DNA of 64,000 bases from Plantactinospora sp. GCM10030261 (GCF_042666615.1 NZ_JBHTDD010000005.1:80997-144996); one strand, 5' to 3'. Positions 590-28,717 are shown, numbered from the stretch's first letter. Notes: a model not told the origin generated them from the sequence alone. Translations and numbers: made by a program.

Positions 590-768
590 CCCCCACCCCC
601 ACCCCCACCCCCACCCCCGCACTCGCACTCGCACTCGCACTCGCACTCGCACTCGCCGGGTTGATCAAGAGGTTTGCGTCGGAGAAAGCCGTGATCACTG
701 ACGCAAACCTCTTGATCAACACGGTGGGGGGATCGACAGGGTGGGGGGATCGACGGGGTGGGGGAGGA
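590..768. repeat. Composite intergenic palindromic element, copy A: (CCCCCA)n tract, (GCACTC)7 hexamer microsatellite, 20-bp-arm hairpin (661-680 / 700-719, 19-nt loop), then G-tract direct repeats 'GGGTGGGGGGATCGAC' x2
   Basis: Seen directly. The C-rich 5' flank is complementary to the G-rich 3' flank. The inner hairpin 'TTGATCAAGAGGTTTGCGTC...GACGCAAACCTCTTGATCAA' recurs at 27521-27578 and 28659-28717. Confidence 0.8.
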
Positions 769-1165
769 TGGAGATATGGGTGGGAGAGGTGACTGGTCCG
801 GGATCGACGCGGCGTTGCGGGAGTTGGCCGGCGCCGACACGCTCGCCTTCGGTGGAGTCGGATTCGCCGGCCAGGTGCTGCCGGTGACCGAGGCGTACCG
901 GCTGGTGGAGCAGGCCCTGCCGGCGCGGGCCGAGGAACTGCGGCCGCGGCTGATGGAGCTGATCGAGAACGGATCGGCGGCCGGTCGGGCGTACGCCGTC
1001 ACGTTGCTCGACCGCTTCGACCCGGCCGCGGCCGGCGCCGCGTGGCGGTCGCTGCTCGACGACCGGTCCGAGTTCACCACGTTCACCGGTTGTGTCATGG
1101 GAAAAACAAGTCTGGGCGATTACGCGGCCGAGCGCATGCGCCCTGGACCACCACTGCGTGACTGA
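758..1165 (+). CDS. Hypothetical small protein, possibly HEAT/PBS-lyase-like repeat
   Basis: ORF with high GC3 codon bias; 'AAGRAYAVTLLDRFDPAAAGAAWRSLLDD' resembles HEAT-like repeats. The start sits inside the G-tract of the repeat element, so it is uncertain. Confidence 0.4.
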   Translation: MGEDGDMGGRGDWSGIDAALRELAGADTLAFGGVGFAGQVLPVTEAYRLVEQALPARAEELRPRLMELIENGSAAGRAYAVTLLDRFDPAAAGAAWRSLLDDRSEFTTFTGCVMGKTSLGDYAAERMRPGPPLRD

Positions 1166-1250
1166 CTGAATACTCAACAACGCCGGCATTTGCAGATGTG
1201 CACGGGGTTGTTACCGTCTCGCCCGACGCGAAGTCGATGGGGGCGGTGTG

Positions 1251-1892
1251 GTGAACGGGACGCTGACTTACCTGGTGACCGGCTTGGGGTGCCTGGTCGC
1301 CGTGGCCGGACTGGCGGTTGCTGTGATCATGTGGCGCCGGGCGCGGCGGCAGAGCACCGCGCCATCCGCCCCGGCCGACCCGTTCCGGCAGCCGGACGAC
1401 GACGCCGACGCGATGCGGGGCGATCCCCGCAAGCTGCGCCCGGGGGACATCGTCGAGATCCGTGGCAGCTCCTACGGGGTACGCGGCTCGCTGCACTTCA
1501 CCGAGGGTGACTGGGGCTGGGCCGAGCATCTGCTCGACGACGTACAGGGCGTCAAGCGGTGGCTCTCCGTCGAGGAGGACCCGGATCTGGAACTGGTGCT
1601 GTGGACCGCGGAACCGGGCGCCACCGTCACCCCGGGCGCGCCCACTGTCGACTTCGACGGCCGGCGGTTCGCCAGTGACGAGTCGGGTCGAGCCCGCTAC
1701 ACCGCCACCGGGACAACCGGACTCAATCCGACCGGCACCGTGCGGTACCACGATTACCAGGCGCCCGGCGGGGCCCGATTGTCGTTCGAGGCGTACGGCG
1801 ACAGCGGCAGCTGGGAAGTGGCCCGCGGCGAGGTGCTGCGCCGTCCCGAGGTCATGATTTATCCGCAGTCGGCCCCCGAGGGGAAGCGCTGA
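1251..1892 (+). CDS. DUF4178-domain membrane protein (Rv2597-like), first gene of a conserved operon
   Basis: N-terminal TM segment; the C-terminal 'WEVARGEVL...' region matches the DUF4178 pattern; size and position match mycobacterial Rv2597 upstream of speE. Confidence 0.7.
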   Translation: MNGTLTYLVTGLGCLVAVAGLAVAVIMWRRARRQSTAPSAPADPFRQPDDDADAMRGDPRKLRPGDIVEIRGSSYGVRGSLHFTEGDWGWAEHLLDDVQGVKRWLSVEEDPDLELVLWTAEPGATVTPGAPTVDFDGRRFASDESGRARYTATGTTGLNPTGTVRYHDYQAPGGARLSFEAYGDSGSWEVARGEVLRRPEVMIYPQSAPEGKR

Positions 1893-2392
1893 TGCTCGTC
1901 GACATAGACACCCCGTACGCCGACACCACGGCCGCCGACCTGAGCCTCGCCATCGACGGTCCGGAGCGGCCGGCGCTACACGTGCTCACGGTCACCCTGC
2001 CCGGCCTGGCCACGGTGCATCTGCGACTGCTCGGCGCCTCGCATCAGGTGGTGCTCGACATCTCCGGTACGGCCGTCCGGTCGGAGACCGTCGCCTGCCT
2101 CCCCGGCGCCGACCGGTTGCCCCGGGAGATGCACGACGACGCCGGGCGCTACCGGTTCACCTCCCGGGTGCTCCGGCTCGACCGGGTGGCCTTCGTCGAG
2201 CAGGTGGCGACGCTGCGCGACGAGCTGACCGACGACCCGCACGCGCTGGTAGGCGTTTTTCCCGGCGACCGGGACGCGGTCACGGCCCTGCGGGTCCGAC
2301 CCGATGGGGAGCGGGCCGTGCGGTGGCAGACCTGGCACGCGTACCCACAGACCGGTGAACTGGTCCAGACCGAGACGGTGGTGACCCCATGA
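1892..2392 (+). CDS. DUF2617-like conserved hypothetical protein (Rv2598-like)
   Basis: 166 aa. The start ATG overlaps the upstream stop (TGATG), indicating translational coupling. Position and size match Rv2598. Confidence 0.65.
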   Translation: MLVDIDTPYADTTAADLSLAIDGPERPALHVLTVTLPGLATVHLRLLGASHQVVLDISGTAVRSETVACLPGADRLPREMHDDAGRYRFTSRVLRLDRVAFVEQVATLRDELTDDPHALVGVFPGDRDAVTALRVRPDGERAVRWQTWHAYPQTGELVQTETVVTP

Positions 2393-2814
2393 CGCCTCGC
2401 AAGTGGTTCCTGCTCGGCACGATCTTCGCCGTGGTCGGTGTGCTGGTGGCGGCCTTCGGAATCTTCTACGGCAACTTCTCCCCCCGTGGCTACGTCGAGG
2501 ACCGGTACACCCGGGCGGCGGCGCGCGACATCGGGCGGGACGCCGTCGCGTACACCGCGAACCGGCCGCCGAGCCAGGTGGCGAAGGAGGTCACGGACGC
2601 CTGGCGGCCGGCCGACGAGTACGTCGACGGCAGTGGCGTCTACCTGCGCTACGACGACGACTCCGTGGTGATCCTGCCGCTCGCGGCCGGCTCGCTGATC
2701 CTGCTGGAGAAGACGTCCACCGCGTACCGGCGTTACCACTCCACCGTGGGCAACGCTTGGGGGTGGGGTCGGGGTAGCTCCGTCCGGGGCGGTGGCCCCG
2801 GGTCCGGCAAATAG
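2389..2814 (+). CDS. DUF4247-like membrane protein (Rv2599-like)
   Basis: 141 aa with an N-terminal TM helix ('WFLLGTIFAVVGVLVAAFGIFYG'); ATGA overlap with the upstream gene. Confidence 0.65.
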   Translation: MTPRKWFLLGTIFAVVGVLVAAFGIFYGNFSPRGYVEDRYTRAAARDIGRDAVAYTANRPPSQVAKEVTDAWRPADEYVDGSGVYLRYDDDSVVILPLAAGSLILLEKTSTAYRRYHSTVGNAWGWGRGSSVRGGGPGSGK

Positions 2815-2880
2815 GCCCGGCCCCGTATCCCTCAGTCCGCCGCTTCCGTCAGTCCGCCGCTTCCTCACCCTGGAGACACC

Positions 2881-3303
2881 GTGCCGAACCTCGTCACCGA
2901 CCTGATGATCACCCTGGCCTACGGCGCCGTCGGGGTGGTGCTCATGGGGATCGGGTACGTCCTTGTCGACCTGGCTACGCCGGGCCGGCTCAACGAGCTG
3001 ATCTGGGTCGACCGGAACCGCAACGCCGCTGTGCTACTCGCCTCCAACCTGGCCAGCGTCGGCATCATCGTGGTCGCCTCGATCATGGCGAGCGAGGACG
3101 ACTTCGCCCGCGGGATCATTGGCAGCGCGGCGTACGGCGTACTCGGCCTGGTGATCATGGCTGGGGCGTTCCTGCTGCTGGACGTGGCCACGCCGGGCAA
3201 GCTCGGGGAGATCCTGGTGGATCCGCAGCCGCATCCGGCGGTCTGGGTCTCCGCCACGGTGCACCTCGCCACCGGCGCGGTCATCGCGGCCGCCATCAGC
3301 TGA
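2881..3303 (+). CDS. DUF350-family small integral membrane protein (Rv2600-like)
   Basis: 140 aa. Two internally duplicated halves, each with 2 TM ('LAYGAVGVVLMGIGYVLVDLATPGRLNELI' and 'AAYGVLGLVIMAGAFLLLDVATPGKLGEIL'), which is typical of DUF350. Confidence 0.75.
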   Translation: MPNLVTDLMITLAYGAVGVVLMGIGYVLVDLATPGRLNELIWVDRNRNAAVLLASNLASVGIIVVASIMASEDDFARGIIGSAAYGVLGLVIMAGAFLLLDVATPGKLGEILVDPQPHPAVWVSATVHLATGAVIAAAIS

Positions 3304-4094
3304 TGCGCGGGTCGTACGTGGCCGGCCGGGCCGCCCTCGTCATGGTGGGCACGGCGACCGCCGTGTTCGGCTTCGCCGGTCCGGCGAGGGCCGAACCGGT
3401 GCCGCCGCCGACCCTGCCCGAACGGACCGACACCGTCGCGGTGCTGGACCGCTCGGCACAGAGCCAAAACATCTGCTTCGGCTGGCGGCTCGCCGACCGG
3501 TACCGGGACCGGGAGGTGAGCGTCGGGTCGAACCTGGGCGACGGGGTGCCGGTGGACAGCGACCCGCAGCGCTGCCCACGCTGGATCGAGGTCGCCGGCA
3601 CGGTCGTCTATACCTCGGAGAGCAGTGAGAGCGAGGACTACGCGAGCCTGTCGGTCGAGTCCTCCGCCGGCCTGGACGCCTTCGGCATGGAGGCCGACCT
3701 GGGGCGGTTCGGCCTCGACGAGAAGGCGTTCGTGGACGATCCGGGCTGGGCGATCTGCCGGGCCGCCACCATCCTCCCGCTGCTGGCGGTCGAGCGGGAA
3801 CTGGCCAGCCCGGCGCCGGTGATCACCGCCGAACCGGCCGCCGCGGTGACCCCGCTGGCCGACGCGGGCAGCGACATGTGGCGGGACCGCTGGGGTTACT
3901 TCGCCGGAGCGCTCGGTCTGCTGCTGGTGACCGGACTGCTGGTGGCTATCGGGCTGGTTCAGCGGCGCAAGGAGCACAACCGGGACGCCGAGGCGCAGCG
4001 CCGGCTCGCGGCCCGGCAGCGACGGCAGCAGCGGACCGCGAAGGACTTCGCCCCCGGCCCCCGGACCGGCCGACGTACCGGGGATGGCGGGTGA
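3303..4094 (+). CDS. Secreted, C-terminally membrane-anchored hypothetical protein
   Basis: Signal peptide '...AVFGFAGPARA/EP'; C-terminal TM 'GALGLLLVTGLLVAIGLV' followed by a basic tail; TGATG overlap with the upstream gene. This gene is inserted relative to the mycobacterial Rv2597-2601 layout. Confidence 0.65.
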   Translation: MRGSYVAGRAALVMVGTATAVFGFAGPARAEPVPPPTLPERTDTVAVLDRSAQSQNICFGWRLADRYRDREVSVGSNLGDGVPVDSDPQRCPRWIEVAGTVVYTSESSESEDYASLSVESSAGLDAFGMEADLGRFGLDEKAFVDDPGWAICRAATILPLLAVERELASPAPVITAEPAAAVTPLADAGSDMWRDRWGYFAGALGLLLVTGLLVAIGLVQRRKEHNRDAEAQRRLAARQRRQQRTAKDFAPGPRTGRRTGDGG

Positions 4095-5659
4095 GCGTCG
4101 CGACGCCGACCCACCCGCGCTGGCGACTGGCCCGCGCGGGTGTCCTGCTCGCGGTCTTCGTCTGCGCCGCCTGCGGCCTGGTGTACGAACTGGCGCTGGT
4201 GGCGCTCGGCAGCTACCTGATCGGTGACACGGTCGGGCAGGCGTCGATCGTGCTGGGCGTGATGGTTTTCGCGATGGGCCTCGGGGCGTTGGCCGCCAAG
4301 CCGTTGCAGTCCCGCGCGGCCGCCGCGTTCGCCGCCGTCGAGTTGGTCCTCGCGCTGCTCGGCGGGTTGTCGGTGCTGCTGCTCTACGCCGCGTTCGCCT
4401 GGCTCAACCTGTACGCACCGGCGCTGGTGGTGACCGCCTTCGTGCTCGGCCTGTTGATCGGTGCGGAGATCCCGCTGCTGATGGTGCTTTTGCAACGGAT
4501 CAGGGAACAGGCCGCCGGCAGCGCGGTGGCTGACCTGTTCGCCGCCGACTACGTGGGCGCGCTGCTCGGCGGGTTGGCCTTCCCGTTCCTGCTGATTCCG
4601 GTGTTCGGTCAGCTCAGGGGTGCCCTGGTGGTGGGGGCGGTGAACGCGCTCGCCGGGGTGGTCCTGGTCTTCACCGTTTTCCGGAAGGACCTCGGCCGGC
4701 GGTCCCGGATCGTGCTCACCGCCGGGTCCGCCGTGGTGGCGCTCTGTCTCGGGTACGCGTACGCCATGGCACACGACTTCGAGGTGACCTCGCGGCAGCA
4801 GCTCTACCGGGACCCGGTGGTGTACGCGGAACGCAGCCGTTACCAGGAGATCGTGTTGACCCGGTCGGCGTCGGTGGCCGGCCGGCCCGGCACCGACCTG
4901 CGGCTGTTCCTCAACGGCGACCTGCAGTTCAGTTCCGTCGACGAGTACCGCTACCACGAGGCGCTGGTCCACCCGGCGCTCGCCGGTGCCCGCTCGTCGG
5001 TGCTGGTTCTGGGGGCCGGTGACGGGCTGGCCGTGCGGGAACTGCTGCGTTACCCCGACGTACGGCGGGTCACCGTGGTCGACCTGGATCCGGCGGTGGT
5101 GGCGTTGGCCCGCCGGGAGCCGCAGTTGCGACAGCTCAACGCGCACGCCTTCGACGATCCCCGGGTCCGGGTGGTGAACGCGGACGCGTTCGGCTGGCTG
5201 CGCACCGCCGCCGAGCGGTTCGACGCGGTCGTGGCCGACCTGCCGGACCCGGACGAGACGGCCACCGCCAAGCTCTACACCGTCGAGTTCTACGAGCTGA
5301 TCCGGTCGGTGCTGGGCGACGAGGGCCGGCTGGTGGTGCAGTCCGGCTCGCCGTACTTCGCCCCCCGGTCGTTCTGGTCGATCGAGGCGTCCGTGCGGGC
5401 GGCCGGGTTCGCGACCACTCCGTACCACGTCGATGTGCCGTCTTTCGGCGACTGGGGGTTCGTGTTGGCGGCGCCGGGCGGCACCGCTCCCGAGCTGAGG
5501 CTGCCCGAGGAGCATCCGGCGACCCGCTTCCTCGATGGCGACACGCTGCGGATGGCGGCCGTCTTCCCCGCGGACCGGCGCCGGCTGGACGTGCCAGCGT
5601 CCACCCTGCTGCACCCCCGGGTGTTGGAGTTCTCCCGGGCCGAGTGGCGGGACTACTGA
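4092..5659 (+). CDS. speE: Polyamine aminopropyltransferase (spermidine synthase-like) with N-terminal multi-TM domain
   Basis: GTGA overlap start. The N-terminal half has 6-7 TM helices. The C-terminal half carries the spermidine-synthase fold motifs 'VLVLGAGDGLAVRELLRY...VVDLDPAVV...VVADLPDP'. About 522 aa, like Rv2601. Confidence 0.8.
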
Positions 5660-5772
5660 CCGCGCCGCGGTGCGGGCGAAACACGGCCTGGTCCGGCGGG
5701 TCGTTCCTGTTTCACCCCGATCGCTGGCAGGGTATCGATACCCTGTTTCGTGGCTCTAGGAAAGGAGCGTTC

Positions 5773-6531
5773 GTGTCGGATCCGAGCAATCCGGTCGCAC
5801 CGACGGCCGGGGCACGTCCGAGCAGCGTCACGATCTCCAGCTATCTGCTGTACGCGGTCGCCGCACTGCAGGTGATCAACGCCATCATCGGACTCGCCTA
5901 CCTTGGCAAGGTCCAGGACGCCTACCGTGATCTCTACGCGGGCACCAGCGTGGAGGGCGCGGAGACGGCGACGGCGATCGGCGCCATTGCCGGCACCGTC
6001 GTCCTCCTGCTCATCGCCATCGGCCTCGTCGTGCTGGCGGTGCTCAACAACCGGGGCAAGAACGCTTCCCGGATCACCACCTGGGTGGTCGGTGGCATCG
6101 GAGCCTGCTGCCTCGGCTTCGGCCTTCTCGGCACGGCCCTGAGCAACTCGATGGGCAACGCGGGCGGCGACGCGCCGAGCGCCGCCGAGATCCAGCAGCG
6201 GCTCGACGAGGTGCTCCCCGGCTGGTACGGCCCGGTCACCAACACGTTGACGACGCTCGCCCTGCTCGCGCTGCTTGCGGCGCTGATCCTGCTGGCCCTG
6301 CCGGCGTCCAACCAGTTCTTCCGCAAGCCGCAGCCGGGTCACGGGGAGCCACCGGTGCCGGGTGGCACCTACCCCGGCTACCCGCAGGGCGGCGGTGGCG
6401 CGCCGGAGCCGGGCTACCCGTCCGCCCCCGGCTACCCGTCCACCCCCGGGCAGCCGACGGCCCACCCGCAGGAGCCGGGCCCGCGGACGGACCGGGACGA
6501 CAAGCCGCCGTCGACCCCACCGGCCGGCTGA
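5773..6531 (+). CDS. Membrane protein with 4 TM helices and Pro/Gly-rich C-terminal tail
   Basis: Strong RBS 'AGGAAAGGAG' 6 nt before GTG at 5773; hydrophobic segments; C-terminus 'PGYPQGGGGAPEPGYPSAPGYPSTPGQP'. Confidence 0.65.
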   Translation: MSDPSNPVAPTAGARPSSVTISSYLLYAVAALQVINAIIGLAYLGKVQDAYRDLYAGTSVEGAETATAIGAIAGTVVLLLIAIGLVVLAVLNNRGKNASRITTWVVGGIGACCLGFGLLGTALSNSMGNAGGDAPSAAEIQQRLDEVLPGWYGPVTNTLTTLALLALLAALILLALPASNQFFRKPQPGHGEPPVPGGTYPGYPQGGGGAPEPGYPSAPGYPSTPGQPTAHPQEPGPRTDRDDKPPSTPPAG

Positions 6532-6623
6532 GTCGTACCGGCACGACGTCCGATCCCCCCGGGTAGGTTGCTCACAACACAACTCCCGGGGGGATCGTCG
6601 TGTCTCAGGCAGGAGGAGATTCG

Positions 6624-7232
6624 ATGTCGGACGCTCCGCCGCACCGGCCCGCGGCCGTGACCGGCGCGGCCGCGATGCTGGTGCTGATGGCGACGGTCGG
6701 CCTGGCGCACGCGGTGCTCGGCCTGGCGATCCTGTCGGGCACGGTCGACCGGTTCCGCGCGGCCACCGCCAGCACCGCCGCCAGCCGGTCGGAGCTTGGC
6801 ACGGTGGTGTTCCTGATGCGCGGCGCCGCGGCCCTCGCCACGCTGATCGGGGTGGGCGTCGCGGTGCTTCTGGTGCTGCTGGCCCTGGGATTGATCCGGG
6901 GGACGCCGGGCGCCCGGGTCGCGACCTGGGTGGTCTGCGGGCTCGGCACGCTGCTCGGCTGCGGAGCGCTCACCGTGACGGTGCTGCAACGGACGGTGCC
7001 GATGGAGTTCGGCCCCGACGAACTGGCCACGGAACAACTGGTCACAGCCGCGGGAAGCGCCTATCCGGACTGGTGGGCCGGCCTGGGCGCGACCCTTTCG
7101 GTGGCTCAGGGCCTCGGCTACCTTGTGGTGGCCGGACTGCTCGCGTTGCCGCCGGCGGCCGCCTTCTTCCGCCGGCGCGGGGGTGACGACCACACCCGAG
7201 CGCGACCCCCTGTTCCGGCCGTCCCGTCGTAG
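6624..7232 (+). CDS. Membrane protein, paralogous in architecture to the 5773-6531 gene
   Basis: RBS 'GGAGGAG' before ATG at 6624; 4 predicted TM helices in the same layout as the upstream gene. Confidence 0.6.
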   Translation: MSDAPPHRPAAVTGAAAMLVLMATVGLAHAVLGLAILSGTVDRFRAATASTAASRSELGTVVFLMRGAAALATLIGVGVAVLLVLLALGLIRGTPGARVATWVVCGLGTLLGCGALTVTVLQRTVPMEFGPDELATEQLVTAAGSAYPDWWAGLGATLSVAQGLGYLVVAGLLALPPAAAFFRRRGGDDHTRARPPVPAVPS

Positions 7233-7254
7233 ACCAGCGAGGTGAGGACCGCCC

Positions 7255-9331: not shown

Positions 9332-10045
9332 TCAGTGCTGGCCGTAGTGCTGCCGCGTCTCGCGGATCGCCTGTTCCGCCGCGGCGCGCTCCTCGGGAGT
9401 GGTCCCCCGTTTCGCGGCCATGCGCGCGCGGAGCAACTCGATCGCGATCGGCACCACCGAAATCGCCACGATCGCGATCAGGATCATTTCGATGTTCGCC
9501 TTGACGAACGGGATCTGGCCGAGGAAGTAACCAAGAACGGTCACGCCGGTGCCCCAGAGGATGCCGCCGATCACGTTGTAGGTGACGAAGGTCCGGTAGC
9601 GCATGCCGCTGACGCCCGCGACGATCGGCGTGAAGGTCCGCACGATCGGTACGAACCGCGCCAGCACGATTGATCGGGCACCGTACTTCTCGAAGAACTC
9701 GTGTGCCTTGATCACGTTCTCCTGCTTGAACAGGCGCGAGTTCGGGCGCCGGAACAACGCCGGCCCCACCTTCTTGCCGAAGGCGTACCCGACCTGGTCA
9801 CCGGCGATCGCCGCGATGGTGATCAGCAGGCAGACCAGCCACAGCGGGTAGGTGATGTATTTCCCGTCCGCGGTGAGCAGCCCTGCGGTGAACAGCAGCG
9901 AGTCGCCCGGCAGGAAGAAGCCGATCAGCAGGCCGGATTCGGCGAAAACGATGGCCAGGATGCCCAGCAGGCCGAATGTCGAGATCAGCCACTCCGGTTC
10001 CAGCCAGTCCGGACCGAGGGCGAGGGTGATGGTGGGCGACGACAA
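9332..10045 (-). CDS. DedA-family (VTT domain) membrane protein
   Basis: 'FLPGDSLLFTAGLL...VLARFVPIVRTFTPIVAGVSGMRYRTF' DedA signature with multiple TM helices. Confidence 0.85.
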   Translation of the reverse strand: MSSPTITLALGPDWLEPEWLISTFGLLGILAIVFAESGLLIGFFLPGDSLLFTAGLLTADGKYITYPLWLVCLLITIAAIAGDQVGYAFGKKVGPALFRRPNSRLFKQENVIKAHEFFEKYGARSIVLARFVPIVRTFTPIVAGVSGMRYRTFVTYNVIGGILWGTGVTVLGYFLGQIPFVKANIEMILIAIVAISVVPIAIELLRARMAAKRGTTPEERAAAEQAIRETRQHYGQH

Positions 10046-11093: not shown

Positions 11094-11295
11094 ACGTAAG
11101 GTCCAATCATTGAGTCGGTCTGGCCCCGCGGACCCGCCGGGCGTCGGCCACGGCCCACCAGGCTACCCGCGGCCGGATCGGCCGCCGCCGAGCCGGCGCG
11201 CGTCCGGCGGGGATCCGCCGCGTCCGAAACCGGCCGACCCGGAGCGGCCCGCTGCCGCCGAACCGGCCGCGTCCGGCGCCCACGGCCACGGCCAG

Positions 11296-13821
11296 TCAGA
11301 GCCGCGGGTCGACCGGCTCCGACTCACAGGCCAGGATCGCGAAGACCAGTTCGTGCCGCCGCCACAGCGGCGCGCCCTCGGTCAGTCCGTCCAGCGCCGC
11401 CAGGCCCAGCCCGTGTTCGCGCAGCGCGAGACCGCGCTTGCGTCCCAGCGACCTGCCACGGAGCGCGGCGAGCTGGTCGGGCCGGTCGTACTCGGGACCG
11501 TAGATGATCCGCAGGTAGTCCCGGCCCCGACACTTGATGCCCGGCTGCACCAACCGGCCATTCCCGTCGGTCGCGGCCAGGCCGGCGTACGGCTTGACCA
11601 CCATGCCCTCGCCGCCGGCCGCGGTCAGCGCCAGCCACCACTCGGTCGCGTCCGTCACCGCACCGGAGTCGGCGAGATCCACCACCCGCCGGTCGGTCCG
11701 GGTGATGAACTCGGGGTCGGCCTCTCGCAGCCGGTCGGCCAGCGCGAGATGCCAACCGTGATCCCGACCGGTGTGTGCCGCCCCCGCGCTGGCCAGCACC
11801 GCGAACGGCGCAAGCGTCACCCCGGTCAGCCCGTCCGTCGGCCGAACGTACGCCCGGTACGCCACGGCATACCGGGCCAGATCGTCGGCGCGTCGGGTCA
11901 TCCGGTCCCGAAGCTCGGCCACCGGCAACCCACGGTCCGCGGCTGCGGACAGGGCGGCCAGCGCGGCCGGCAACGCGGCGCCCCCGGCGGCGGCCACCGG
12001 GGCGTACTGCTCGCGGATCAGTCCGGTCGCCTTGGCCGACCAGGGCAGCAGTTCACAGTCCAGCAGCAGCCAGTCGGTGTTCAACTCGGTCCACAGGCCC
12101 GCGCGGTCGATGGCTGATCGCACCCGGTCCACAAGCGCGGACCCCAGCGGCTCGGCGAACACCGGCCGGCCGGTCCGGGTGTACGCCACGCCACCGCCCG
12201 CGCCGAACCTCGCGTCGGCGGAATCCCGGCACACGAGCAGCACGGCGCGGGAGCCCATGTGCTTCTCCTCGCACACCACCCGATCCACCCCGGCCGCCCG
12301 GTAGTCGGCGAACGCGTCGGCCGGGTGCTCCAGGAAGCCGTCCACGGTCGCCGTCGAACACGGCGCCATCGTCGGCGGCAGCCACACCAGCCGGTGCGGG
12401 TCGACCGCGAACCGGCTCATCACCTCCAGGGCGGCCGCGGCGTTCTCGGCCGGCACGGTCAGCCGGCCGTACCGGTGCTCGACGTGCCGGCGGCCCGTGA
12501 CATCCGCGAGGTCCAGCACGTCCGCCGGGCGCTCGGGCGCCGGCACGACGAGCGGCCGGGCCGGCGGGTAGTACTCCTTCGCGGCCGGCACCGACACCAG
12601 GTCCCGTTCCGGGTAACGCAGGGCGGTCAACGAGCCGCCGAAAACGCAGCCGGTGTCGATGCAGATGGTGTTGTTGACCCACTCGGGTGTCGGCGTCGGG
12701 GTGTGCCCGTAGACCACGGTGGCCGAACCACGATAGTCACGGGCCCACGGGTAGCGGACCGGAAGGCCGTACTCGTCGGTCTCACCGGTCGTCTCGCCGT
12801 ACAACGCGAAGGCCCGGACCCGTCCGGACGCCCGCCCCTGGTATGCCTCCTTCAGCCCGGCGTGGGCCACCACCAGCCGGCCACCGTCCAGCACGTAGTG
12901 GCTGACCAGGCCGTCGATGAACGTCTCCACCCCGGCGACGAACTCCGGTGGCTCGGTCGCCAACTGGGCCAGCGTCTCGGCCAGGCCGTGGGACACCGTG
13001 ACCTTGCGGCCGCGCAGCTTGCGTACCAGCTTCTGCTCGTGGTTGCCCGGCACGCAGAGCGCGGTGCCGGCGGCGACCATGCCCATCACCAGGCGCAGCA
13101 CCCCCGGCGAGTCCGGGCCGCGGTCCACCAGGTCGCCCACGAAGATCGCGGTACGCCCCAGCGGGTGCGTCGCGTTGACCGGCCTGCCGGTGGCGTCCCG
13201 GTGCACCGTCCAGCCCAGCCGTTCTAGCAGCGCCTCCAGTTCGGCCCGGCAGCCGTGCACGTCACCGACGATGTCGAACGGGCCGGTCAGCTCCTTGCGG
13301 TCGTTGAACAGCCGCTCGTAGTGGATCTCGGTCGCGTCGATCTCGGCGGGGCCGCGCAGCACGTGCACCTTGCGGAAGCCCTCACGGGCCAGCCCGGACA
13401 GCGACCGGCGCAGGTCGCGGTGCATCCGGTGCAGAACCTGCCGGCCGAACGGACGGTCGGCGCGGGCCTCGGTCCGCTCCCAGCACAGCGGCTCGGGCAC
13501 GTCCAGCACGACCGCGACCGGCAGCACGTCGTGCTCCCGGGCCACCGCGACCAGGCCGGCCCGGGCGTGCGACTGGAGATTCGTCGCGTCGACCACCGTC
13601 AGCCGGCCGGCCCGCAGCCGCTTGCCGGCGACGTAGTGCAGCACGTCGAAGGCGTCGGCGGAGGCCGACTGGTCGTTCTCGTCGTCGGCGACCATCGCCC
13701 GGAACGCGTCCGAGGAGAGCACCTGGCTGGGCCGGAAGTGCCGCCGGGCGAATGTGGACTTACCCGACCCGGAGATGCCGACGAGGGCCACCAGCGCCAG
13801 CTCCGGAATGTCGATCCGCAT
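11296..13821 (-). CDS. pnkp: Polynucleotide kinase-phosphatase-ligase (bacterial Pnkp, RNA repair)
   Basis: N-terminal P-loop kinase 'GISGSGKSTF'; central calcineurin-like phosphoesterase motifs 'GDLVDRGPDS' and 'GNHE'; C-terminal adenylyltransferase-type ligase domain with 'EEKHMGSR'. 841 aa, the same tri-domain order as Clostridium thermocellum Pnkp. RBS 'AAGGGGG' before the ATG. Confidence 0.85.
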   Translation of the reverse strand: MRIDIPELALVALVGISGSGKSTFARRHFRPSQVLSSDAFRAMVADDENDQSASADAFDVLHYVAGKRLRAGRLTVVDATNLQSHARAGLVAVAREHDVLPVAVVLDVPEPLCWERTEARADRPFGRQVLHRMHRDLRRSLSGLAREGFRKVHVLRGPAEIDATEIHYERLFNDRKELTGPFDIVGDVHGCRAELEALLERLGWTVHRDATGRPVNATHPLGRTAIFVGDLVDRGPDSPGVLRLVMGMVAAGTALCVPGNHEQKLVRKLRGRKVTVSHGLAETLAQLATEPPEFVAGVETFIDGLVSHYVLDGGRLVVAHAGLKEAYQGRASGRVRAFALYGETTGETDEYGLPVRYPWARDYRGSATVVYGHTPTPTPEWVNNTICIDTGCVFGGSLTALRYPERDLVSVPAAKEYYPPARPLVVPAPERPADVLDLADVTGRRHVEHRYGRLTVPAENAAAALEVMSRFAVDPHRLVWLPPTMAPCSTATVDGFLEHPADAFADYRAAGVDRVVCEEKHMGSRAVLLVCRDSADARFGAGGGVAYTRTGRPVFAEPLGSALVDRVRSAIDRAGLWTELNTDWLLLDCELLPWSAKATGLIREQYAPVAAAGGAALPAALAALSAAADRGLPVAELRDRMTRRADDLARYAVAYRAYVRPTDGLTGVTLAPFAVLASAGAAHTGRDHGWHLALADRLREADPEFITRTDRRVVDLADSGAVTDATEWWLALTAAGGEGMVVKPYAGLAATDGNGRLVQPGIKCRGRDYLRIIYGPEYDRPDQLAALRGRSLGRKRGLALREHGLGLAALDGLTEGAPLWRRHELVFAILACESEPVDPRL

Positions 13822-15352: not shown

Positions 15353-15479
15353 CTGATCATGATGGCAGCAACCGCGGGTCCCGCGCCGCCCGGTTTGGCC
15401 GGACGACAACGCCGGAGGGGCCCCTTATCGACGCATAGCGATGATAAGAGGCCCCTCCGGGCGATCCATCCGCCGTGGA

Positions 15480-20793: not shown

Positions 20794-20804
20794 CGGCGCG
20801 GAGG

Positions 20805-20837: not shown

Positions 20838-20841
20838 GTCC

Positions 20842-22161
20842 TCACGTCAGCAGGCGGACCGCGGTGTCCACGTCGTCGGTGACGTGCACCAGCTTTGTGA
20901 GATCACCGCCCCGGGACCGGGCCAGCAGCGGCTCCAGCAGGGCTCCGACCGGCAGCGTCTCGGTCCAGTAGGCGCGGTCCAGGAACACGTACGGTCCGCT
21001 CGTCCCGTCCGTGCCGTAGAACGTCTTGGTGGCCGCCTGGAACACCTCCTGCACGGTGCCGGCCTGTCCGGGCGCGAAGACGATGCCACCCCGGGCCAGC
21101 CGCAGAATCGTGTCCTCGCGAATCGCATTGGAGAAGTACTTCGCGATCCGCCCGGCGAACAGGTTCGCCGGCTCGTGGCCGTACAGCCAGGTGGGAATTG
21201 CCAGACCGCCCCGACGGGCCCAGTCGGTGTCCGGATTCGCGCGGACGCCGGCGGCCGACCGTGGCGGCGGCACGGTCGGATCGGGCATTGCGACCGGCGG
21301 AGCGGCGCCCGAGGTTGGCTGGGTCGCCGTGGCGCCGGCGGTCGGCCCTGGCGCGATGCCGCCCGCGGTTGGGCCGGCACCGGCGAACCGTTCGCGGATC
21401 CGCAGTGCGGCGGCCGTGTAACGGTCGTGGTCGGTGTAGTCCGGCGTGCCGGCCAACTCGGCGATCACCGTGGTCAGGACGTCCGCCGGCCAGTCGGCGA
21501 GGAACGCGCCGAGGTTGGCGGCCTCCATCACGCCGGGGCCACCGCCCGTAACGACCAGCCGCCCGGCCCGGGTCAGTTCCCAGCCGAGCGTCGCCGCGAG
21601 CCGGTACGCCGTGGCGCCGCGCGGCACCGCGTGCCCGCCCATCACCCCGACCACCGAACCGGGCCCGTGTCTGGCGAGCCAGGACCGGGTGGCGTCGGCC
21701 AGGGCATTGTCGATCGCGTGGTCGTGCAGCCGCTGGGCGAGCGCCTCGCGGACCGCCGGCAGCGCTCCGCCGTGCGCCCGGAAGTGCTGGTAGACCCGGG
21801 TGTCGTACATGCCGGTGAAGCCGGCAGCGGCGAAGCCGGTGGCGAGGTCGTCCGGCGTGTAGAGCCGGGCGGGATGCGTCGGGTACGGCAGGGCGACGAA
21901 CGGGGGCACCACGTGCGCGCCGCGCCGGACCAGCGCGGCCTCAGCCTCGGCGCTGGCGAACCGGCAGCCCACGAACAGGGTGTCGGTGAGGTCGACGTGG
22001 CTCAGGTCCGGCACCGGGTCGACGTCCAGCCGCAACCCTTGCAGGGTGAGGCCGGCCAGGCTGCCGACGGCCAGGTGCCTGTCGAGTTCAGCCCGGGTCT
22101 CGATCTCCTCGGGCGTGGTGTCGTGCGGTTGGACGACATCGGCGGGGGGAGGGCTCGGCAC
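20842..22161 (-). CDS. LOG-family (TIGR00730 Rossmann-fold nucleotide-binding) protein with ~150-aa N-terminal extension
   Basis: 'VVTGGGPGVMEAANLGA' and 'FAPGQAGTVQEVF' (PGGxGTxxE-like) LOG motifs. Confidence 0.7.
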   Translation of the reverse strand: MPSPPPADVVQPHDTTPEEIETRAELDRHLAVGSLAGLTLQGLRLDVDPVPDLSHVDLTDTLFVGCRFASAEAEAALVRRGAHVVPPFVALPYPTHPARLYTPDDLATGFAAAGFTGMYDTRVYQHFRAHGGALPAVREALAQRLHDHAIDNALADATRSWLARHGPGSVVGVMGGHAVPRGATAYRLAATLGWELTRAGRLVVTGGGPGVMEAANLGAFLADWPADVLTTVIAELAGTPDYTDHDRYTAAALRIRERFAGAGPTAGGIAPGPTAGATATQPTSGAAPPVAMPDPTVPPPRSAAGVRANPDTDWARRGGLAIPTWLYGHEPANLFAGRIAKYFSNAIREDTILRLARGGIVFAPGQAGTVQEVFQAATKTFYGTDGTSGPYVFLDRAYWTETLPVGALLEPLLARSRGGDLTKLVHVTDDVDTAVRLLT

Positions 22162-22380
22162 CCGGCCATCATGGCGGGAGCCCGGTGACGGCGGGTCACC
22201 GGGCTCCCTTCAACCGGTCCTGGGGAGGTTCCGGAAGTCCATTCTCCGTGCGAGACATTCGGAATCGCACCCCTCATACCGTACGGTTCACCTGGCCGTA
22301 CCGGGGGGACGACCTCGGCCGTTCAGTCAGGTCGTGCCCCCGGTTCGCGGGCCACCGTCCCGGAGAGGTTGAATGGGGCG

Positions 22381-22809
22381 ATGCAGAACCTCTTGCCTGA
22401 GCCACCAGCCACCCTCCTGCCGGGCAACGAGGCCGCCGAGGCGGCGCTCGCCGAGGCGGGACAGAAGGACACCGACGAGGCGTACGCCGAGGTCGCGGCC
22501 CGATTCCCGACCTTCAGCGCCGCCTGGGGTGCGCTGGCCGGGCGCGCCTACGCCGACGGCCAGCTCATCCGTGGGTACGCCTACGCCCGTACCGGCTATC
22601 ACCGCGGCCTCGACCAGTTGCGCCGCAGCGGCTGGAAGGGGCACGGCCCGGTGCCCTGGTCGCACGCTCCCAACCAGGGCTTCCTCCGGTGCCTCTACGT
22701 GCTGTCCCGGATCGCCGACGAGATCAGCGAGTCCGACGAGGCGGCTCGGTGCGCCCAGTTCCTCCGCGACTGCGACCCGGCCGCGGCGGACGCCCTCGCC
22801 GGCTCCTGA
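22381..22809 (+). CDS. DUF3151-family protein
   Basis: 'RGYAYARTGYHRGLDQLRRSGWKGHGPVPWSHAPNQGFLRCLYVL' conserved DUF3151 core; this family is commonly linked to fba in actinobacteria. RBS GGAGAGG. Confidence 0.7.
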   Translation: MQNLLPEPPATLLPGNEAAEAALAEAGQKDTDEAYAEVAARFPTFSAAWGALAGRAYADGQLIRGYAYARTGYHRGLDQLRRSGWKGHGPVPWSHAPNQGFLRCLYVLSRIADEISESDEAARCAQFLRDCDPAAADALAGS

Positions 22810-22863
22810 GGTGGACTTCTCGGGCTCGCCGGCGCACGACCTGGCGCGGCCAGCGCCCAGGCG

Positions 22864-25035
22864 TCACAGTCCCTCGGCCACCGCCGCGGCGATCTTCAGC
22901 CAGGCGTCCTTGGTCGCCGACGACAGGCTGCCGTAGCGGAGCGGCTCCCCGGTGTCGATCGACCGCTCGTACGGGGCAAGCAGCACCGCCCGGGTCCGGG
23001 CGGCGAAGTGCCGCTGGATCGGTGGCAGGTCGATCTCCTTGCTGGAGGGCGGCATGGAGACCACGGTGACCGCCTGCCGGACGAGCCGGTGCCGACCGCT
23101 CTGCTCCAGGTGGTCGAGCATCCGCGCGGCGGTCTCGGCCGAGTCGTTCCGGGCCGACATGGTGATCAATAGTTGGTCGGTGGCGTCGATGGCGGCCTGC
23201 CAGTTCTGCGCCCGCACGTTGTTCCCCGTGTCCACGAAAATCAGTTTGTAGAACCGGCTGACCACCTCGCGGATCTCCGCGAACGCGTCGGCGGTCAACA
23301 TCTCACCACCGGTGGCCGACTCGTCCGAGGCCAGCACGTCGAACATGCCCGCCCCCTGCGCCCGGACGTACTGCGACAGGTCACCGATCCGGCCGTGCGC
23401 CCCCTGGAACTGTCCCAGGTCGCGCAGCAGGTCGCGCACCGTGCGGTGGTGGAAGTCCTGCTGCGCCCGCATGCCGAGGGTGCCCTGGGTCTCGTTGTTG
23501 TCCCAGGCCAGCACGTAACCGCCGCGCTTCTGCCCGAACGTCATGGCGAGCAGCAGGATCGCGACGGTCTTGCCGGCACCGCCCTTCGGATTGACAACGG
23601 TCACCTGACGCAGGCCGCCGAAGTTGCGGCGGACCATCTCGACGTCCTGTCGAATCTCCTGCTCGTGGCGGCTGGGCGCCAGCCGCACCAGGCCAAGCTT
23701 GTTGACCACCGCCCGGACGCCCATCTCGGCCACTGGCTCGGCGGGCTTGGCGGCCCGGCGGCGGGCGAACTCCTCGGCGGTGGGCACCGACGGGTCGGGC
23801 GCCCACGGCTGCTCGTCGTAGACGTCCGGGGTCGCCGGCCGGCCCTGCGTCTGCGGGTACGCCCACTGCGGCGCCGGCCCGTGGTTGACCTGTGGCTGGT
23901 TGACCTGCGGTGGATGGCTGACCGGTGGATGGTTCACCTGCGGGTGGCCGTACTGGGTGGCCGGCGGGCCACCGTGCGCGCCCCACACCGGTGGGGTCGG
24001 AGGTGGTTGCTGCGCCCCCCAGCCACCCTGGTTGGGTGGGGCGGTCATCGGCCCCGGCGGAGGTGGACCGGGCACCCGCGCCTGTCCCATCGACGGACCG
24101 GGCGGAGCGGGTGTCGACGTACGCGACGGCGGCTGCGCCCACGGCGAGACCGGCTCCCCCATCCGGGGGCCTTCGTCGGGGCTGGGGTCGGCCGTCGACC
24201 CGTCCCGGGCCGAGACATCGTCGCGCGGCTCCGGCGCGCTCTTGGAGACGGGGGCGTCCGGATGCGACTCGGTCCGGTCACCCGACTCGGTGACGGCCGG
24301 ATCAAGGGTGAACGGCTCGTCCAGGTCCACCCCGGCCGAGCCGCCACGGTCGTCCGGGCCGTTGCCGTCGCGATCGTCCCCGTCGCCGATCGTCGGGCCG
24401 GCCTCCGCCGCCGACTGAGGTGCGCCGCGACCGTTCACGATCGGCCAGGCGCGGGTCGGCAGGTCGGCCGCGACGGACTGGGGCGGGACGTCCGAGTCGG
24501 CCGGCGTCATGTCGTCCGGTACGCGTGGCACGTCGACCGGTGGGCGTGGTGAGTTCACCGGCGGCTGTGGTGGGCCGAACGGTGTCTGGGTCGGCTGGAA
24601 CGGCGGCTGCGGCGGGACGACCGGATGCTGAGCCGGTCCGCCGTGCACCGGCGGCTCCGGCGGCCGGACCGGCGGCTGAGCCGTGATCCACGGCGGCAGC
24701 GGCTGAGTCGTCGCCCAGCTGGGCCGCTCGGTCGAACTCTGCTGCGGGGGCGGCGAAACCGGCGACCGGGAGACCGGATCCGGTCCCGGTTCCGGCTCGG
24801 GAGGCGGAGTGGGCGCGGCCGCGTTGGCGAGCCGTTGCGCGGCCGTGGTGATCTGAGTCCGCGGTCCGCGGTGTTCGGCCGGCTCGTGGTCCGGTGGCGG
24901 GGCCTGCTGGATCCACGGTGGGATCGGCAACTCCTCGCGCGGCGCCGACGTGCCGCCCTGCTGCGCGGCCTGTCCTTCCTCGGCCGGCAGGTGAGTTCCG
25001 TCCCTGTCCTCGTGCACCACAGATACCTCCCCCAT
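22864..25035 (-). CDS. ParA/MinD-family ATPase with ~400-aa Pro-rich N-terminal low-complexity region
   Basis: Deviant Walker A 'NPKGGAGKTV' in the C-terminal ~300 aa; the N-terminus is PPxP-rich ('HPPVSHPPQVNQPQVNH'); RBS GAGGAG. Confidence 0.8.
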   Translation of the reverse strand: MGEVSVVHEDRDGTHLPAEEGQAAQQGGTSAPREELPIPPWIQQAPPPDHEPAEHRGPRTQITTAAQRLANAAAPTPPPEPEPGPDPVSRSPVSPPPQQSSTERPSWATTQPLPPWITAQPPVRPPEPPVHGGPAQHPVVPPQPPFQPTQTPFGPPQPPVNSPRPPVDVPRVPDDMTPADSDVPPQSVAADLPTRAWPIVNGRGAPQSAAEAGPTIGDGDDRDGNGPDDRGGSAGVDLDEPFTLDPAVTESGDRTESHPDAPVSKSAPEPRDDVSARDGSTADPSPDEGPRMGEPVSPWAQPPSRTSTPAPPGPSMGQARVPGPPPPGPMTAPPNQGGWGAQQPPPTPPVWGAHGGPPATQYGHPQVNHPPVSHPPQVNQPQVNHGPAPQWAYPQTQGRPATPDVYDEQPWAPDPSVPTAEEFARRRAAKPAEPVAEMGVRAVVNKLGLVRLAPSRHEQEIRQDVEMVRRNFGGLRQVTVVNPKGGAGKTVAILLLAMTFGQKRGGYVLAWDNNETQGTLGMRAQQDFHHRTVRDLLRDLGQFQGAHGRIGDLSQYVRAQGAGMFDVLASDESATGGEMLTADAFAEIREVVSRFYKLIFVDTGNNVRAQNWQAAIDATDQLLITMSARNDSAETAARMLDHLEQSGRHRLVRQAVTVVSMPPSSKEIDLPPIQRHFAARTRAVLLAPYERSIDTGEPLRYGSLSSATKDAWLKIAAAVAEGL

Positions 25036-25082
25036 CTCCTCCGAGGATATGCCCGTCCGCCCGTGCGGGGTCAGGAGCGGCT

Positions 25083-27496
<2,414 letters not shown>

Positions 27497-27643
27497 CCAC
27501 CCCCCACCCCCTGTACCGGGTTGATCAAGAGATCTGCGTCAGGATTCGAGCTGACCCTGACGCAGATCTCTTGATCAACCCGGGGACGCGGGCCCGGGGA
27601 CGCGGGCCCGGGGACAGGGGTGGGGGACAGGCGCGGGACAGGT
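27497..27643. repeat. Composite palindromic element, copy B: C-tract, hairpin 27521-27540 / 27559-27578, tandem 'CCCGGGGACGCGGG' x2 and G-tract
   Basis: Same architecture as copy A (590-768). The hairpin arms differ from copy A by compensatory substitutions: GGTTT/AAACC in A versus GATCT/AGATC in B. Confidence 0.8.
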
Positions 27644-27732
27644 TCCGGGCTGAGCGGGGGCGCCGGTGCGGGTTATCCACAGGGTTATCCACAGGGGTGT
27701 TGGAGTGTGGGTCTAGGCGCGAGGGTGGACGG

Positions 27733-28662
27733 GTGACCACTCCTCCATCGCTGCGCCGGGTGGCTGCCGGTCAGGACGGCGTCGTGTCCCTCCGCCAGGC
27801 GCTTCGTGCCGGTCTTTCCCGGGACGAGGTCCGGCAGCGGTGTCGGGCTGGCCGCTGGATCCGGCTGTTGCCTGGGTACTTCCTGATCGACCCCGCGGCC
27901 TGTGTCGCACCGATCCGCCGGGCCCGGATCAGGGCTGCGGTCGCCAGCCTGGGCCGAGGGGCCTGCGCCGTCCTGGAAACCGCCGCGGAGTTGCAGGGCA
28001 TCGCCGGCCTTCGGCCCAGCACGATGATCCATGTCTCGGTCCCGGTGGCCCGGCCCCGACCCCAACGGCATGCCCATGCTGGGCTCACGGTGCACCAGTT
28101 GACGGTCAGCGATGAGGACGTGCACCGCATCGATGACATCCCGGTGACAACCCCGCTTCGCACTTTGGCGGACGTGATCCTGCGGACTGACCGGTACTCC
28201 GCTGTGTCCGCGATCGACTCGGCGCTGCACCGAGGGCTGGTCGACGCGTCCCAGCTGCCGCTGGTCGCGCGCTCGATCTCTCGCCGGCGGGGGGCTGTGG
28301 CCGCCCGGGGCTACCTCCTGGAGGCGGATGGTCGGGCACAGTCACCGCTCGAAACCCGGGTGCGGTTGCGCTGCGTCGACGGCCGGGTCCCACCCGACGA
28401 TCTACAGGTCGAGGTCCGTGACGCCGACGGCTACCTGCTAGGCATCGGTGATCTGGGCTGGCGGCGCGCGAGGGTGATCGCCGAGGCGGATGGGAGAGGC
28501 CCGCACGGTGGTCCGGACGCGGTGTTCGCCGACCGTTGGCGACAGAATCGCCTGGTCAACGCCGGCTGGGCGGTGGTCCGCTTCACCTGGGCGGACACCC
28601 TCCGGTCCGACTACATCCCGTTCACGGTAAGGAACGCTCTCGCCGTCGCGGCAGCTCGTTGA
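27733..28662 (+). CDS. DUF559 (Vsr-endonuclease-fold) domain protein with N-terminal AbiEi-like winged-helix region
   Basis: C-terminus 'VIAEADGRGPHGGPDAVFADRWRQNRLVNAGWAVVRFTW' matches the DUF559 pattern E-x-DG...D..R...L...GW.V.RF; GTG start in frame with the long 26158-28662 ORF. Confidence 0.75.
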   Translation: MTTPPSLRRVAAGQDGVVSLRQALRAGLSRDEVRQRCRAGRWIRLLPGYFLIDPAACVAPIRRARIRAAVASLGRGACAVLETAAELQGIAGLRPSTMIHVSVPVARPRPQRHAHAGLTVHQLTVSDEDVHRIDDIPVTTPLRTLADVILRTDRYSAVSAIDSALHRGLVDASQLPLVARSISRRRGAVAARGYLLEADGRAQSPLETRVRLRCVDGRVPPDDLQVEVRDADGYLLGIGDLGWRRARVIAEADGRGPHGGPDAVFADRWRQNRLVNAGWAVVRFTWADTLRSDYIPFTVRNALAVAAAR

Positions 28663-28717
28663 CCAAGAGGTTTGCGTCATGAAACGGGCCCTTGGGTGAC
28701 GCAAACCTCTTGATCAA
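28659..28717. repeat. Palindromic hairpin, copy C (arms 28659-28678 / 28698-28717), overlapping the DUF559 stop codon
   Basis: 'TTGACCAAGAGGTTTGCGTC...GACGCAAACCTCTTGATCAA', with one arm mismatch. This copy lacks the long C/G flanks. Confidence 0.75.

Follow-up and report, generated by a model that had tools for sequence, protein, structure and literature searches.

A stretch of 64,000 nucleotides from Plantactinospora sp. GCM10030261 (NZ_JBHTDD010000005.1:80997-144996; here called the window, with positions counted from its first letter) carries three copies, hairpins A, B and C, of a chromosomal composite palindromic repeat family specific to Micromonospora and Plantactinospora. Each element consists of a hairpin of ~60 nt preceded by C-rich and followed by G-rich sequence, and the hairpin is built of a 21-22 bp stem closed by the invariant sequences GATCA and TGATC around a 16-nt loop of free sequence. 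The copies follow the 3' ends of genes, occupy sites conserved across the genus, carry compensated stem changes and evolve in concert within a genome. They are read here, with chances that stand about even, as a symmetric two-way transcript-end module resembling the repetitive extragenic palindromic (REP) elements, in which a C tract similar to a Rho utilization (rut) site and a stable hairpin would probably act with the assistance of Rho, and in which uniformity would be maintained by copy correction or by a sequence-specific factor.

A search of the window with the arm pattern TTGAYCAAGAGNNNTGCGTC gives six matches, which make up the hairpins at 661-719, 27521-27578 and 28659-28717, compared to a mean of 0.00 matches in 100 dinucleotide-preserving shuffles. 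These exact matches bear out a first-pass annotation, made from the sequence alone, that had described the three hairpins, the compensatory arm changes between A and B, and the C and G tracts around these two copies. Each hairpin is ~58 nt long, and they rank second to fourth among the longest inverted repeats of the window. Folded as RNA, either strand reaches -37 to -60 kcal/mol (z-scores, -5 to -13). Relative to A and C, hairpin B has two stem substitutions (GTT to ATC), both compensated in the opposite arm. The C-rich tract upstream and the G-rich tract downstream are seen for A and B and not for C, because the latter adjoins coding sequence and the putative purD promoter; the stop codon of the preceding AbiEi/DUF559 gene is the TGA of hairpin C's TTGA, and the probable purD start follows the hairpin after ~35 nt. 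The same hairpin is found after the orthologous clpB ends in L043, L082 and L091 (L numbers denote retrieved loci), and the orthologous site of hairpin B is occupied in nine other genomes. At 714-764, the right terminus of hairpin A and its G tract are present in three tandem copies of GATC(A/G)AC(A/G)(C/G)GGTGGGGG, similar to a duplicated left terminus in L035 (~1360-1390). The triplicated terminus looks like the outcome of several rounds of slippage, or of abortive events, at the GATC boundary.

Distribution and build of the family

Scanning a species-representative genome collection with the 20-nt arm returned at least 117 matching stretches, all but seven of them from Micromonospora, with dozens of species represented. 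The family comprises at least 114 full hairpins in 110 Micromonospora loci and the window. Almost all are exactly 58 nt long, and the arms are always paired among the copies found in the Micromonospora loci; about one further copy occurs per 121 kb of flanking DNA. The seven remaining matches, from Streptomyces and one metagenome-assembled genome of Acidobacteriota, are not family members and represent single arms in unrelated conserved sequence. Those of Streptomyces (L022, L034, L057, L061, L109, and L113) contain a conserved CAGTTGATCAAGAGACATGCGTCCCATCCGG, a single arm without partner that is probably coding.

The family consensus is G-TTGATCAAGAGGTTTGCGTCA-N16-TGACGCAAACCTCTTGATCAA-C, with nearly invariant arms and a free 16-nt loop; the near-invariance of the arms is partly forced by retrieval, since the scan demanded one exact arm. 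Despite the free loop sequence, the span from GATC to GATC is 54 nt in 66 of 75 copies. Searches with the inner stem unfixed revealed sister families of the same build that start with GATCATGAAGTT, GATCTTGCACTT, GATCGTGAAGTC or, in a 75-nt version, GATCCACTCGG. This 75-nt GATC-closed family (GATCCACTCGG...CCGAGTGGATC) shows a weaker flank skew and occurs in L040 (223-297 and 433-507), L043 (588-662), L075 (3764-3838), L023 (3573-3646), and L050 (4613-4687), and other GATC-closed hairpin types include GATCTTGCACTT and GATCTTGGACAG. In ~1 Mb of loci, GATC closes 24 long hairpins beyond the main family, compared to 0-3 for each of 15 other palindromic tetramers, even far commoner ones such as CCGG, and GATC at the stem foot is therefore the hallmark of a superfamily. 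Scans for solo TGATCA-type "empty sites" and for C-to-G skew switches were too permissive but exposed further GATC-closed families. A hairpin not closed by GATC, (A/C)GGA(A/G)GGGCCCCTT...AAGGGGCCC, also follows stop codons and is present at 15412-15460 of the window, in L123 (2650-2697), and in L122 (~11965-12030).

Rfam gave no match in the window at gathering thresholds, and a permissive E-value setting produced sub-threshold generic eukaryotic miRNA hairpins only. Plasmid and phage collections contain no copies of the family. Neither these resources nor the literature searched yielded a comparable family in high-GC antibiotic-producing actinomycetes, and that literature contains no report of the sequence or of a comparable family in Micromonospora or Actinobacteria. 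The combination of a stem base with invariant GATC, a free loop of fixed length, a strict C-to-G polarity on both strands, genus-conserved positions and homogenisation within genomes is unusual.

Placement, covariation and concerted evolution

With genes around the copies called by a simple method based on GC content at the third codon position, 51 of 97 copies have convergent neighbours and 46 co-directional ones, and no copy separates divergent genes. The hairpin usually follows the stop codon at a distance of 15-60 nt, and ~14 hairpins themselves supply the stop codon through the TGA of their TTGA, copy C among them. The tracts around A and B are typical of the whole family, in which C makes up 50-60% of the 80 nt 5' of the hairpin and G makes up 50-60% of the 80 nt 3' of it. 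In the 78 nt before the hairpin, taken in either reading direction, the C/G ratio exceeds 1 in 99% of cases (median, 2.45), compared to a median of 1.03 after genes without a hairpin. Canonical G-quadruplex (G4) motifs are found 3' of 52-54% of the copies and are absent in the opposite sense. In part, the tracts resemble microsatellites, and their length among orthologues ranges from ~20 to >100 nt. They had been proposed in the first-pass annotation to form an outer stem, but the flanks of one copy pair no better with each other than with those of other copies (-50.0 versus -48.7 kcal/mol; p=0.24). What appeared as an outer stem is therefore a polarity of composition and not a specific inverted repeat.

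Covariation was assessed in an alignment of 19 sequences from the purA-side and AbiEi-side hairpins, which were retrieved through protein synteny and are thus free of selection by their arms. Both sites, after purA and after the AbiEi gene, carry a hairpin in every genome examined. GATCA and TGATC are invariant among these hairpins, and the inner stems diverge widely yet stay paired, examples being GAGATCTGCGTCA, GGAGTTTGTGTCC, GGGAACGGCAGCA, GAGAAAAGCGTCA, and TGAAGTTATTGCC, each with its complement. Two-sided changes with pairing kept are present in 13 of 22 stem pairs, which supports the compensation described in the first-pass annotation. The covariation score of 0.342 compares to 0.149 in shuffles (none of 500 reached it) and to 0.06-0.10 with the partners slid. 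At orthologous positions, with flank identities of 73-91%, a hairpin is catalogued in 131 of 159 hairpin-by-locus comparisons. Those of the 28 apparent absences that were traced are degenerate uncatalogued copies or mis-projected coordinates, and L038 versus L033 and L050 versus L019 were left unexplained.

The sequence of a hairpin tracks its genome rather than its site, which is concerted evolution. The two AbiEi-flanking sites of one genome differ at 4.9 of 24 inner-stem positions, compared to 10.7 for the same site between species and 11.1 for unrelated sites (permutation p=1e-4 for within-genome likeness). Non-consensus arm states are common to non-orthologous copies of one genome with a frequency of 0.415 versus 0.179 expected (p<0.0005), and the GATCATGAAGTT type occupies both sites in M. 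globbae and in the related assembly L126. Fixed sites together with concerted evolution offer a tractable case for how dispersed short repeats stay uniform, be it by gene conversion, hairpin-templated repair or a dedicated enzyme.

In M. parva (L053, 3623-4773), a luciferase-like oxidoreductase gene is situated between two hairpins, the downstream one being a near-exact copy of the upstream one, loop included. The gene is also present in M. arborensis (L097, 860-2111), with a different hairpin type downstream, and two other species (L037, 2048-2105, and L041, 577 and 5350) lack exactly the oxidoreductase gene and one hairpin and keep a single hairpin. These patterns look like in-place replacement, followed in one lineage by a deletion between two direct copies. 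L122 contains chimeric hairpins, and L125 contains near-identical neighbouring copies with even the loop in common. In M. rifamycinica (L124), two tandem hairpins after purA (9802-9944) have arms that pair better across the pair than within it, in a nested arrangement, and after the AbiEi gene (11128-11210) a solo left arm directly abuts a full hairpin. The chimeric, tandem or nested, solo-arm and duplicated-terminus cases show that the sites are recombinationally active. The recombinogenic potential suggested in the first-pass annotation is borne out by L053 and L037, where the unit of gene plus hairpin is present or absent exactly at the hairpin.

Proposed transcript-end role and competing explanations

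Situated just after stop codons, the elements would act as transcript ends in both directions. RNA arriving from either side would first be C-rich and G-poor, like a Rho loading site; the very stable hairpin would then pause RNA polymerase and shield the 3' end from exonucleases, and the polymerase would next enter a stretch with a G-rich non-template strand. In the window, A would end the clpB transcript, B that of purA, and C that of the AbiEi/DUF559 gene just before the promoter of purD. Uniformity of the stems within a genome could result from copy correction, through ectopic gene conversion or hairpin-templated repair, or alternatively from co-evolution with a factor that reads the GATC-closed stem. 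This proposal draws on the strict 3'-end placement, the rut-like C-rich RNA before a stable hairpin, and the putative promoters after the hairpins. Mismatches in the stems add to it: on the sense strand of co-directional copies, G.U outnumbers A.C by 20:6 (p=0.009), or by 17:6 with orthologues collapsed (p=0.035), compared to 18:20, without bias, in convergent copies. The sense-strand excess of G.U favours a constraint on the sense RNA.

The C-rich, G-poor stretch of ~80 nt ahead of the hairpin is a feature of Rho-dependent terminators. A scan with the canonical terminator consensus found no U-tract terminator at A, B or C; the tail consists of CAAC and then the G-rich tract. Structured 3' ends that lack a U tract are widespread in Streptomyces and are read as "I-shaped" terminators or as exonuclease-trimmed ends of Rho-terminated transcripts; the Rho-dependent or U-less (I-shaped, HS-U-lack) 3' ends of high-GC Actinobacteria show, as here, ~80 nt of C-rich sequence and then a stable stem-loop after the stop codon (PMC8269248). 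Ordinary terminators share structure and not sequence, whereas the present family has a genome-wide repeated sequence with an invariant GATC and a fixed loop and is symmetric even where there is only one gene end.

Several observations weigh against the transcript-end proposal. The missing U tract and the 16-nt loop, compared to 3-8 nt in canonical intrinsic terminators, mean that the hairpins do not belong to that class, and mycobacterial RNA polymerase requires a U tract, as stated in one study (PMC3993855), for which reason assistance by Rho is favoured. The excess of G.U could alternatively come from a C-to-T bias on the non-template strand, and hairpin C itself has an A.C mismatch on the sense strand. 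In co-directional copies, the skew facing the 5' end of the next gene equals that on the side where the transcript arrives (0.33 versus 0.31; p=0.57); it is therefore a built-in symmetric property and not one selected only where mRNA arrives. Termination at these sites is deduced from sequence features, and termination leaves the invariant GATC, the fixed loop length and the within-genome homogenisation unaccounted for. The first two do not follow from hairpin stability alone and point to a partner, acting on DNA or RNA, that reads sequence and length. Together, the three features call for a partner that reads the stem, as DNA or as RNA, or for a process of copy correction. Should the elements prove to be two-way Rho-assisted terminators, they would give engineers of Micromonospora gene clusters a compact natural terminator and would provide a handle on how transcription ends in genomes lacking U-tract terminators.

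Most thorough work on REP-like repeat families concerns Proteobacteria, and the roles of REP elements include stabilisation of mRNA 3' ends and Rho-dependent attenuation. Among known systems, the REP/BIME and REPIN-RAYT elements of Enterobacteria and Pseudomonas are the closest: they are short extragenic palindromes with tens to hundreds of chromosomal copies concentrated after gene 3' ends and between convergent genes, and, like the Micromonospora family, they show vertical persistence and lineage-specific sequences. REPINs, too, consist of two inverted units around a spacer (PMC3337134; bioRxiv 10.1101/2022.05.22.493013). The REP foot motif GTAG is not found in the present family, the consensus of which starts with G-TTGATCAAGAG and has a palindromic GATC inside the stem base. 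In contrast to REP elements, the family features a single nearly perfect stem, a fixed loop and long skewed C-rich and G-rich flanks, its sites are fixed across a genus with the sequence homogenised in place, and its host is a high-GC actinobacterium. No RAYT was met in the loci examined, whole genomes not having been searched for one, and the sole hairpin-flanked gene with a putative nuclease domain is the AbiEi/DUF559 gene, which does not encode an HUH protein.

Another explanation, considered unlikely, is that the hairpins are selfish REP/REPIN-like elements or miniature inverted-repeat transposable elements (MITEs), copied by an enzyme such as an HUH/Y1 transposase acting on single-stranded hairpins and tolerated at gene ends without a host function. 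In its favour are many near-identical copies in several sub-families, near-identical neighbours with a common loop (L053 and L125), tandem, nested and partial copies and duplicated termini (L124, L035, and window 714-764), genome-specific variants, and hairpins that provide stop codons. However, direct repeats of 2-8 nt at the boundaries, as target-site duplications, do not exceed the cross-copy control, none of the 159 orthologous comparisons holds a convincing empty site, the Micromonospora loci scanned contain neither solo arms nor longer elements that end in this way, plasmid and phage collections are free of copies, and the sense-strand G.U bias suggests a constraint at the level of RNA. 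MITEs with terminator or RNA-processing activity, such as the Correia elements of Neisseria and the enterobacterial ERIC/IRU elements, are small non-coding inverted repeats that form hairpins and alter transcript ends. The present family differs from them by its much smaller size of 60 nt and by the lack of target-site duplications, empty sites and a related autonomous insertion sequence, and MITE identity was rejected for want of target-site duplications, empty sites and solo arms. From the description as a REP/MITE-like mobile element in the first-pass annotation, the REP likeness is retained and the MITE-type mobility is not.

Gyrase binds BIMEs, and a duplex-DNA or cruciform site for a dimeric protein of this kind (gyrase, a nucleoid protein or a recombinase), with two inverted 21-bp half-sites 16 bp apart and only secondary effects on transcription, would explain why GATCA and TGATC stay unchanged beside a variable inner stem, why the GATC-to-GATC span is fixed, why GATC closes far more additional long hairpins than any of the other tetramers, and why the flank skew is symmetric whatever the direction of transcription; genome-specific stem variants would fit co-evolution with such a protein. 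Quite unlikely all the same, this explanation is opposed by the strict 3'-end placement, the strand asymmetry of G.U and A.C, and the compensation of inner-stem changes, which a sequence-reading protein would not need, and no candidate protein was found. Least probable, and hardly tenable, are recombination sites of the attC or MITE-end type that bound mobile cassettes, with the DUF559 gene as a passenger inserted between purA and purD. The attC sites of integrons are likewise imperfect palindromes of ~60 nt with conserved outer motifs and variable complementary inner parts and can bracket single genes; integron cassettes are promoterless and lie in one orientation beside an integrase. Bracketed single genes are known from L053, L054 and the purA-purD locus, and the oxidoreductase gene with one hairpin, flanked by identical hairpins in L053 and missing as exactly that unit from L037 and L041, resembles a cassette; this case is explained more simply by a deletion between two direct copies. 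The family ends GTTGATC...GATCAAC deviate by one mismatch from each attC core (RYYYAAC...GTTRRRY), bracketed genes lie in both orientations with promoter-like elements of their own, the AbiEi/DUF559 gene is syntenic across the genus and under strong purifying selection, hairpins B and C differ in loop and stem, and more than half of the copies lie between convergent genes. No integrase was seen near the hairpins, though no search for one was made. Identity with integron attC was rejected on motif, gene orientation and synteny, and for the purA-purD locus the cassette model is largely refuted.

The purA-purD locus and neighbouring features

The features of the hairpin loci are listed in Table 1. 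Hairpins B and C flank the DUF559 open reading frame at 27733-28662, as first described. Its protein shows a 100% match to P0001, and an identical protein is recorded from a Plantactinospora species. Pfam identifies AbiEi_4 and AbiEi_1 in the window protein, together with a weak restriction-endonuclease-like match; for DUF559/MTES_1575, the window protein scores below Pfam's own cut-off. Among the aligned orthologues, AbiEi_4 is found in 24 of 24 and, at the C-terminus, MTES_1575 in 24 of 24 and DUF559 in 23 of 24. The predicted structure of the N-terminal two-thirds matches the folds of AbiEi from S. agalactiae (6Y8Q) and Rv2827c (1ZEL). Residues 200-309, the putative nuclease domain, are of low confidence in the AlphaFold model, and the lone fold match there is weak (I-Bth0305I; E=1.3). 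Residues of this domain, including E207, D240, E251, and D253, are invariant among the orthologues.

Table 1. Coordinates of features in and around the hairpin loci of the window (TRF, Tandem Repeats Finder)
Feature	Position	Strand	Remarks
clpB 3' end	8..589	+	Pfam AAA_2 and ClpB_D2-small; gene end precedes hairpin A
Hairpin A 5' flank, C-rich	589..656	.	(ACCCCC)x5 then (CGCACT)x6.5; TRF and family-wide 5' C-richness
Hairpin A	660..720	.	G + TTGATCAAGAGGTTTGCGTC...GACGCAAACCTCTTGATCAA + C; RNA fold -46.6 kcal/mol
Hairpin A 3' flank, G-rich	714..764	.	(GATCGACAGGGTGGGGG)x3; TRF and sequence
purA	26210..27496	+	Pfam Adenylsucc_synt, E=9e-184; 3' end precedes hairpin B
Hairpin B 5' flank, C-rich	27480..27515	.	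Overlaps last purA codons
Hairpin B	27516..27583	.	Perfect 28-bp stem, core with doubly compensated ATC/GAT; RNA fold -57.8 kcal/mol
Hairpin B 3' flank, G-rich	27579..27650	.	(CCCGGGGACGCGGG)x2.6 then GGGGTGGGGG; TRF
Two tandem TTATCCACAGGG repeats, DnaA-box-like	27673..27696	+	Upstream of AbiEi/DUF559 gene; not part of hairpin family
AbiEi-like DNA-binding domains fused to putative DUF559/MTES_1575 (Vsr-like) nuclease domain	27733..28662	+	Pfam, fold match, synteny
Hairpin C	28657..28719	.	Left arm T to C (TTGACC); no C-rich/G-rich flanks
-10-like TAGGAT	28740..28756	+	8 nt before probable purD GTG start at 28754
purD	28754..30007	+	Pfam GARS_N/A/C

The order purA, AbiEi/DUF559 gene, purD is shared by every one of the 10 genomes studied (the window, M. 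avicenniae [L099], M. sp. L5, M. siamensis, M. pattaloongensis, M. rifamycinica, M. globbae, and three further assemblies), and the orthologous proteins are 56-72% identical to the window copy. Given this shared position, the gene is an old resident passed on vertically rather than a recent insertion. The first-pass annotation had taken it for a nuclease-fold passenger that interrupts a conserved purA-purD neighbourhood, a view that the synteny, the protein identities and the invariant nuclease motif contradict. That annotation had named two findings that would together speak against its account, namely the gene at this position in all relatives and no further hairpin copies in the genome; the gene is present in all relatives checked, but further copies exist across the genus. 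AbiE type IV systems also contain the AbiEi_4 winged helix and the AbiEi_1 domain, and their AbiEi adjoins an AbiEii toxin, whereas no AbiEii (DUF1814 nucleotidyltransferase) partner lies beside the bracketed gene, which is flanked by purA and purD in each of the 10 genomes. Since its AbiEi domains are fused to a putative nuclease domain, the label "antitoxin" describes the domain only.

A tblastn search with the AbiEi/DUF559 protein in 0.9 Mb of hairpin-bearing loci found the purA-purD orthologue alone, with no paralogue beside other hairpins. P0080, considered as a second copy in M. avicenniae, is the purA-purD orthologue of another assembly. Other hairpin pairs surround ordinary genes, such as the luciferase-like oxidoreductase gene in L053 and a gene for a secreted protein in L054, and genes come to be bracketed because consecutive genes each end with a hairpin of their own. 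Each genome examined has one AbiEi/DUF559 gene with two flanking hairpins. It is conceivable, albeit very unlikely, that this putative AbiEi/Vsr-like PD-(D/E)xK nuclease recognises or nicks GATC-closed hairpins and drives their in-place homogenisation, in a partnership like that of REP and RAYT but with a different enzyme. As the cognate enzyme, it would define a new actinobacterial class of domesticated repeat-maintenance systems, one not based on HUH proteins.

Promoter-like elements follow hairpins B and C. The repeats after hairpin B, of the form TT(A/G/T)TCCACAGGG, match the DnaA-box consensus TTATCCACA and lie upstream of the AbiEi/DUF559 gene in orthologous loci, with two exact copies in about half of these and none elsewhere in ~1 Mb of loci. 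They are located in L099 (2300), L118 (2940/2952), L120 (2931/2952), L121 (2916), L122 (3521), L123 (9952), L124 (9961/9973), L125 (9928/9950), and L126 (~3926-3962). The TTATCCACAGGG repeats probably serve the AbiEi/DUF559 gene as an operator or promoter element. They may be an operator bound by the gene's own product, as AbiEi proteins are reported to autoregulate through promoter repeats (PMC7319586), or else a DnaA-binding site. After hairpin C, eight other genomes (L118 and L120-L126) retain TAG(G/A)(A/G)T and, after a gap of 7-8 nt, GTG, which suggests a leaderless purD promoter directly after the hairpin. The true purD start probably lies downstream of the open reading frame start listed at 28727.

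Adjoining the hairpin locus is a variable hot spot (~30050-44330), ~14 kb between purD and an acyl-CoA synthetase gene that are absent from M. avicenniae (L099). The interval between these two genes contains other cargo in other species (DMFA2_C, a major facilitator superfamily [MFS] protein, a beta-lactamase, or a protein with a KH domain). The genes present there in the window specify an AAA-domain ATPase of 1763 aa (DUF3686, "DNA repair"), two unknown proteins, an extracytoplasmic function (ECF) sigma factor, an MFS transporter, DsbA-like and alcohol dehydrogenase (ADH)-like proteins, and a MerR regulator. The longest inverted repeat of the window, with 36-nt arms at 43999-44034 and 44105-44140 that are 92% complementary, 70 nt apart and without an Rfam match, is contained in an unusually AT-rich segment (43950-44250) at the right border of this variable region.

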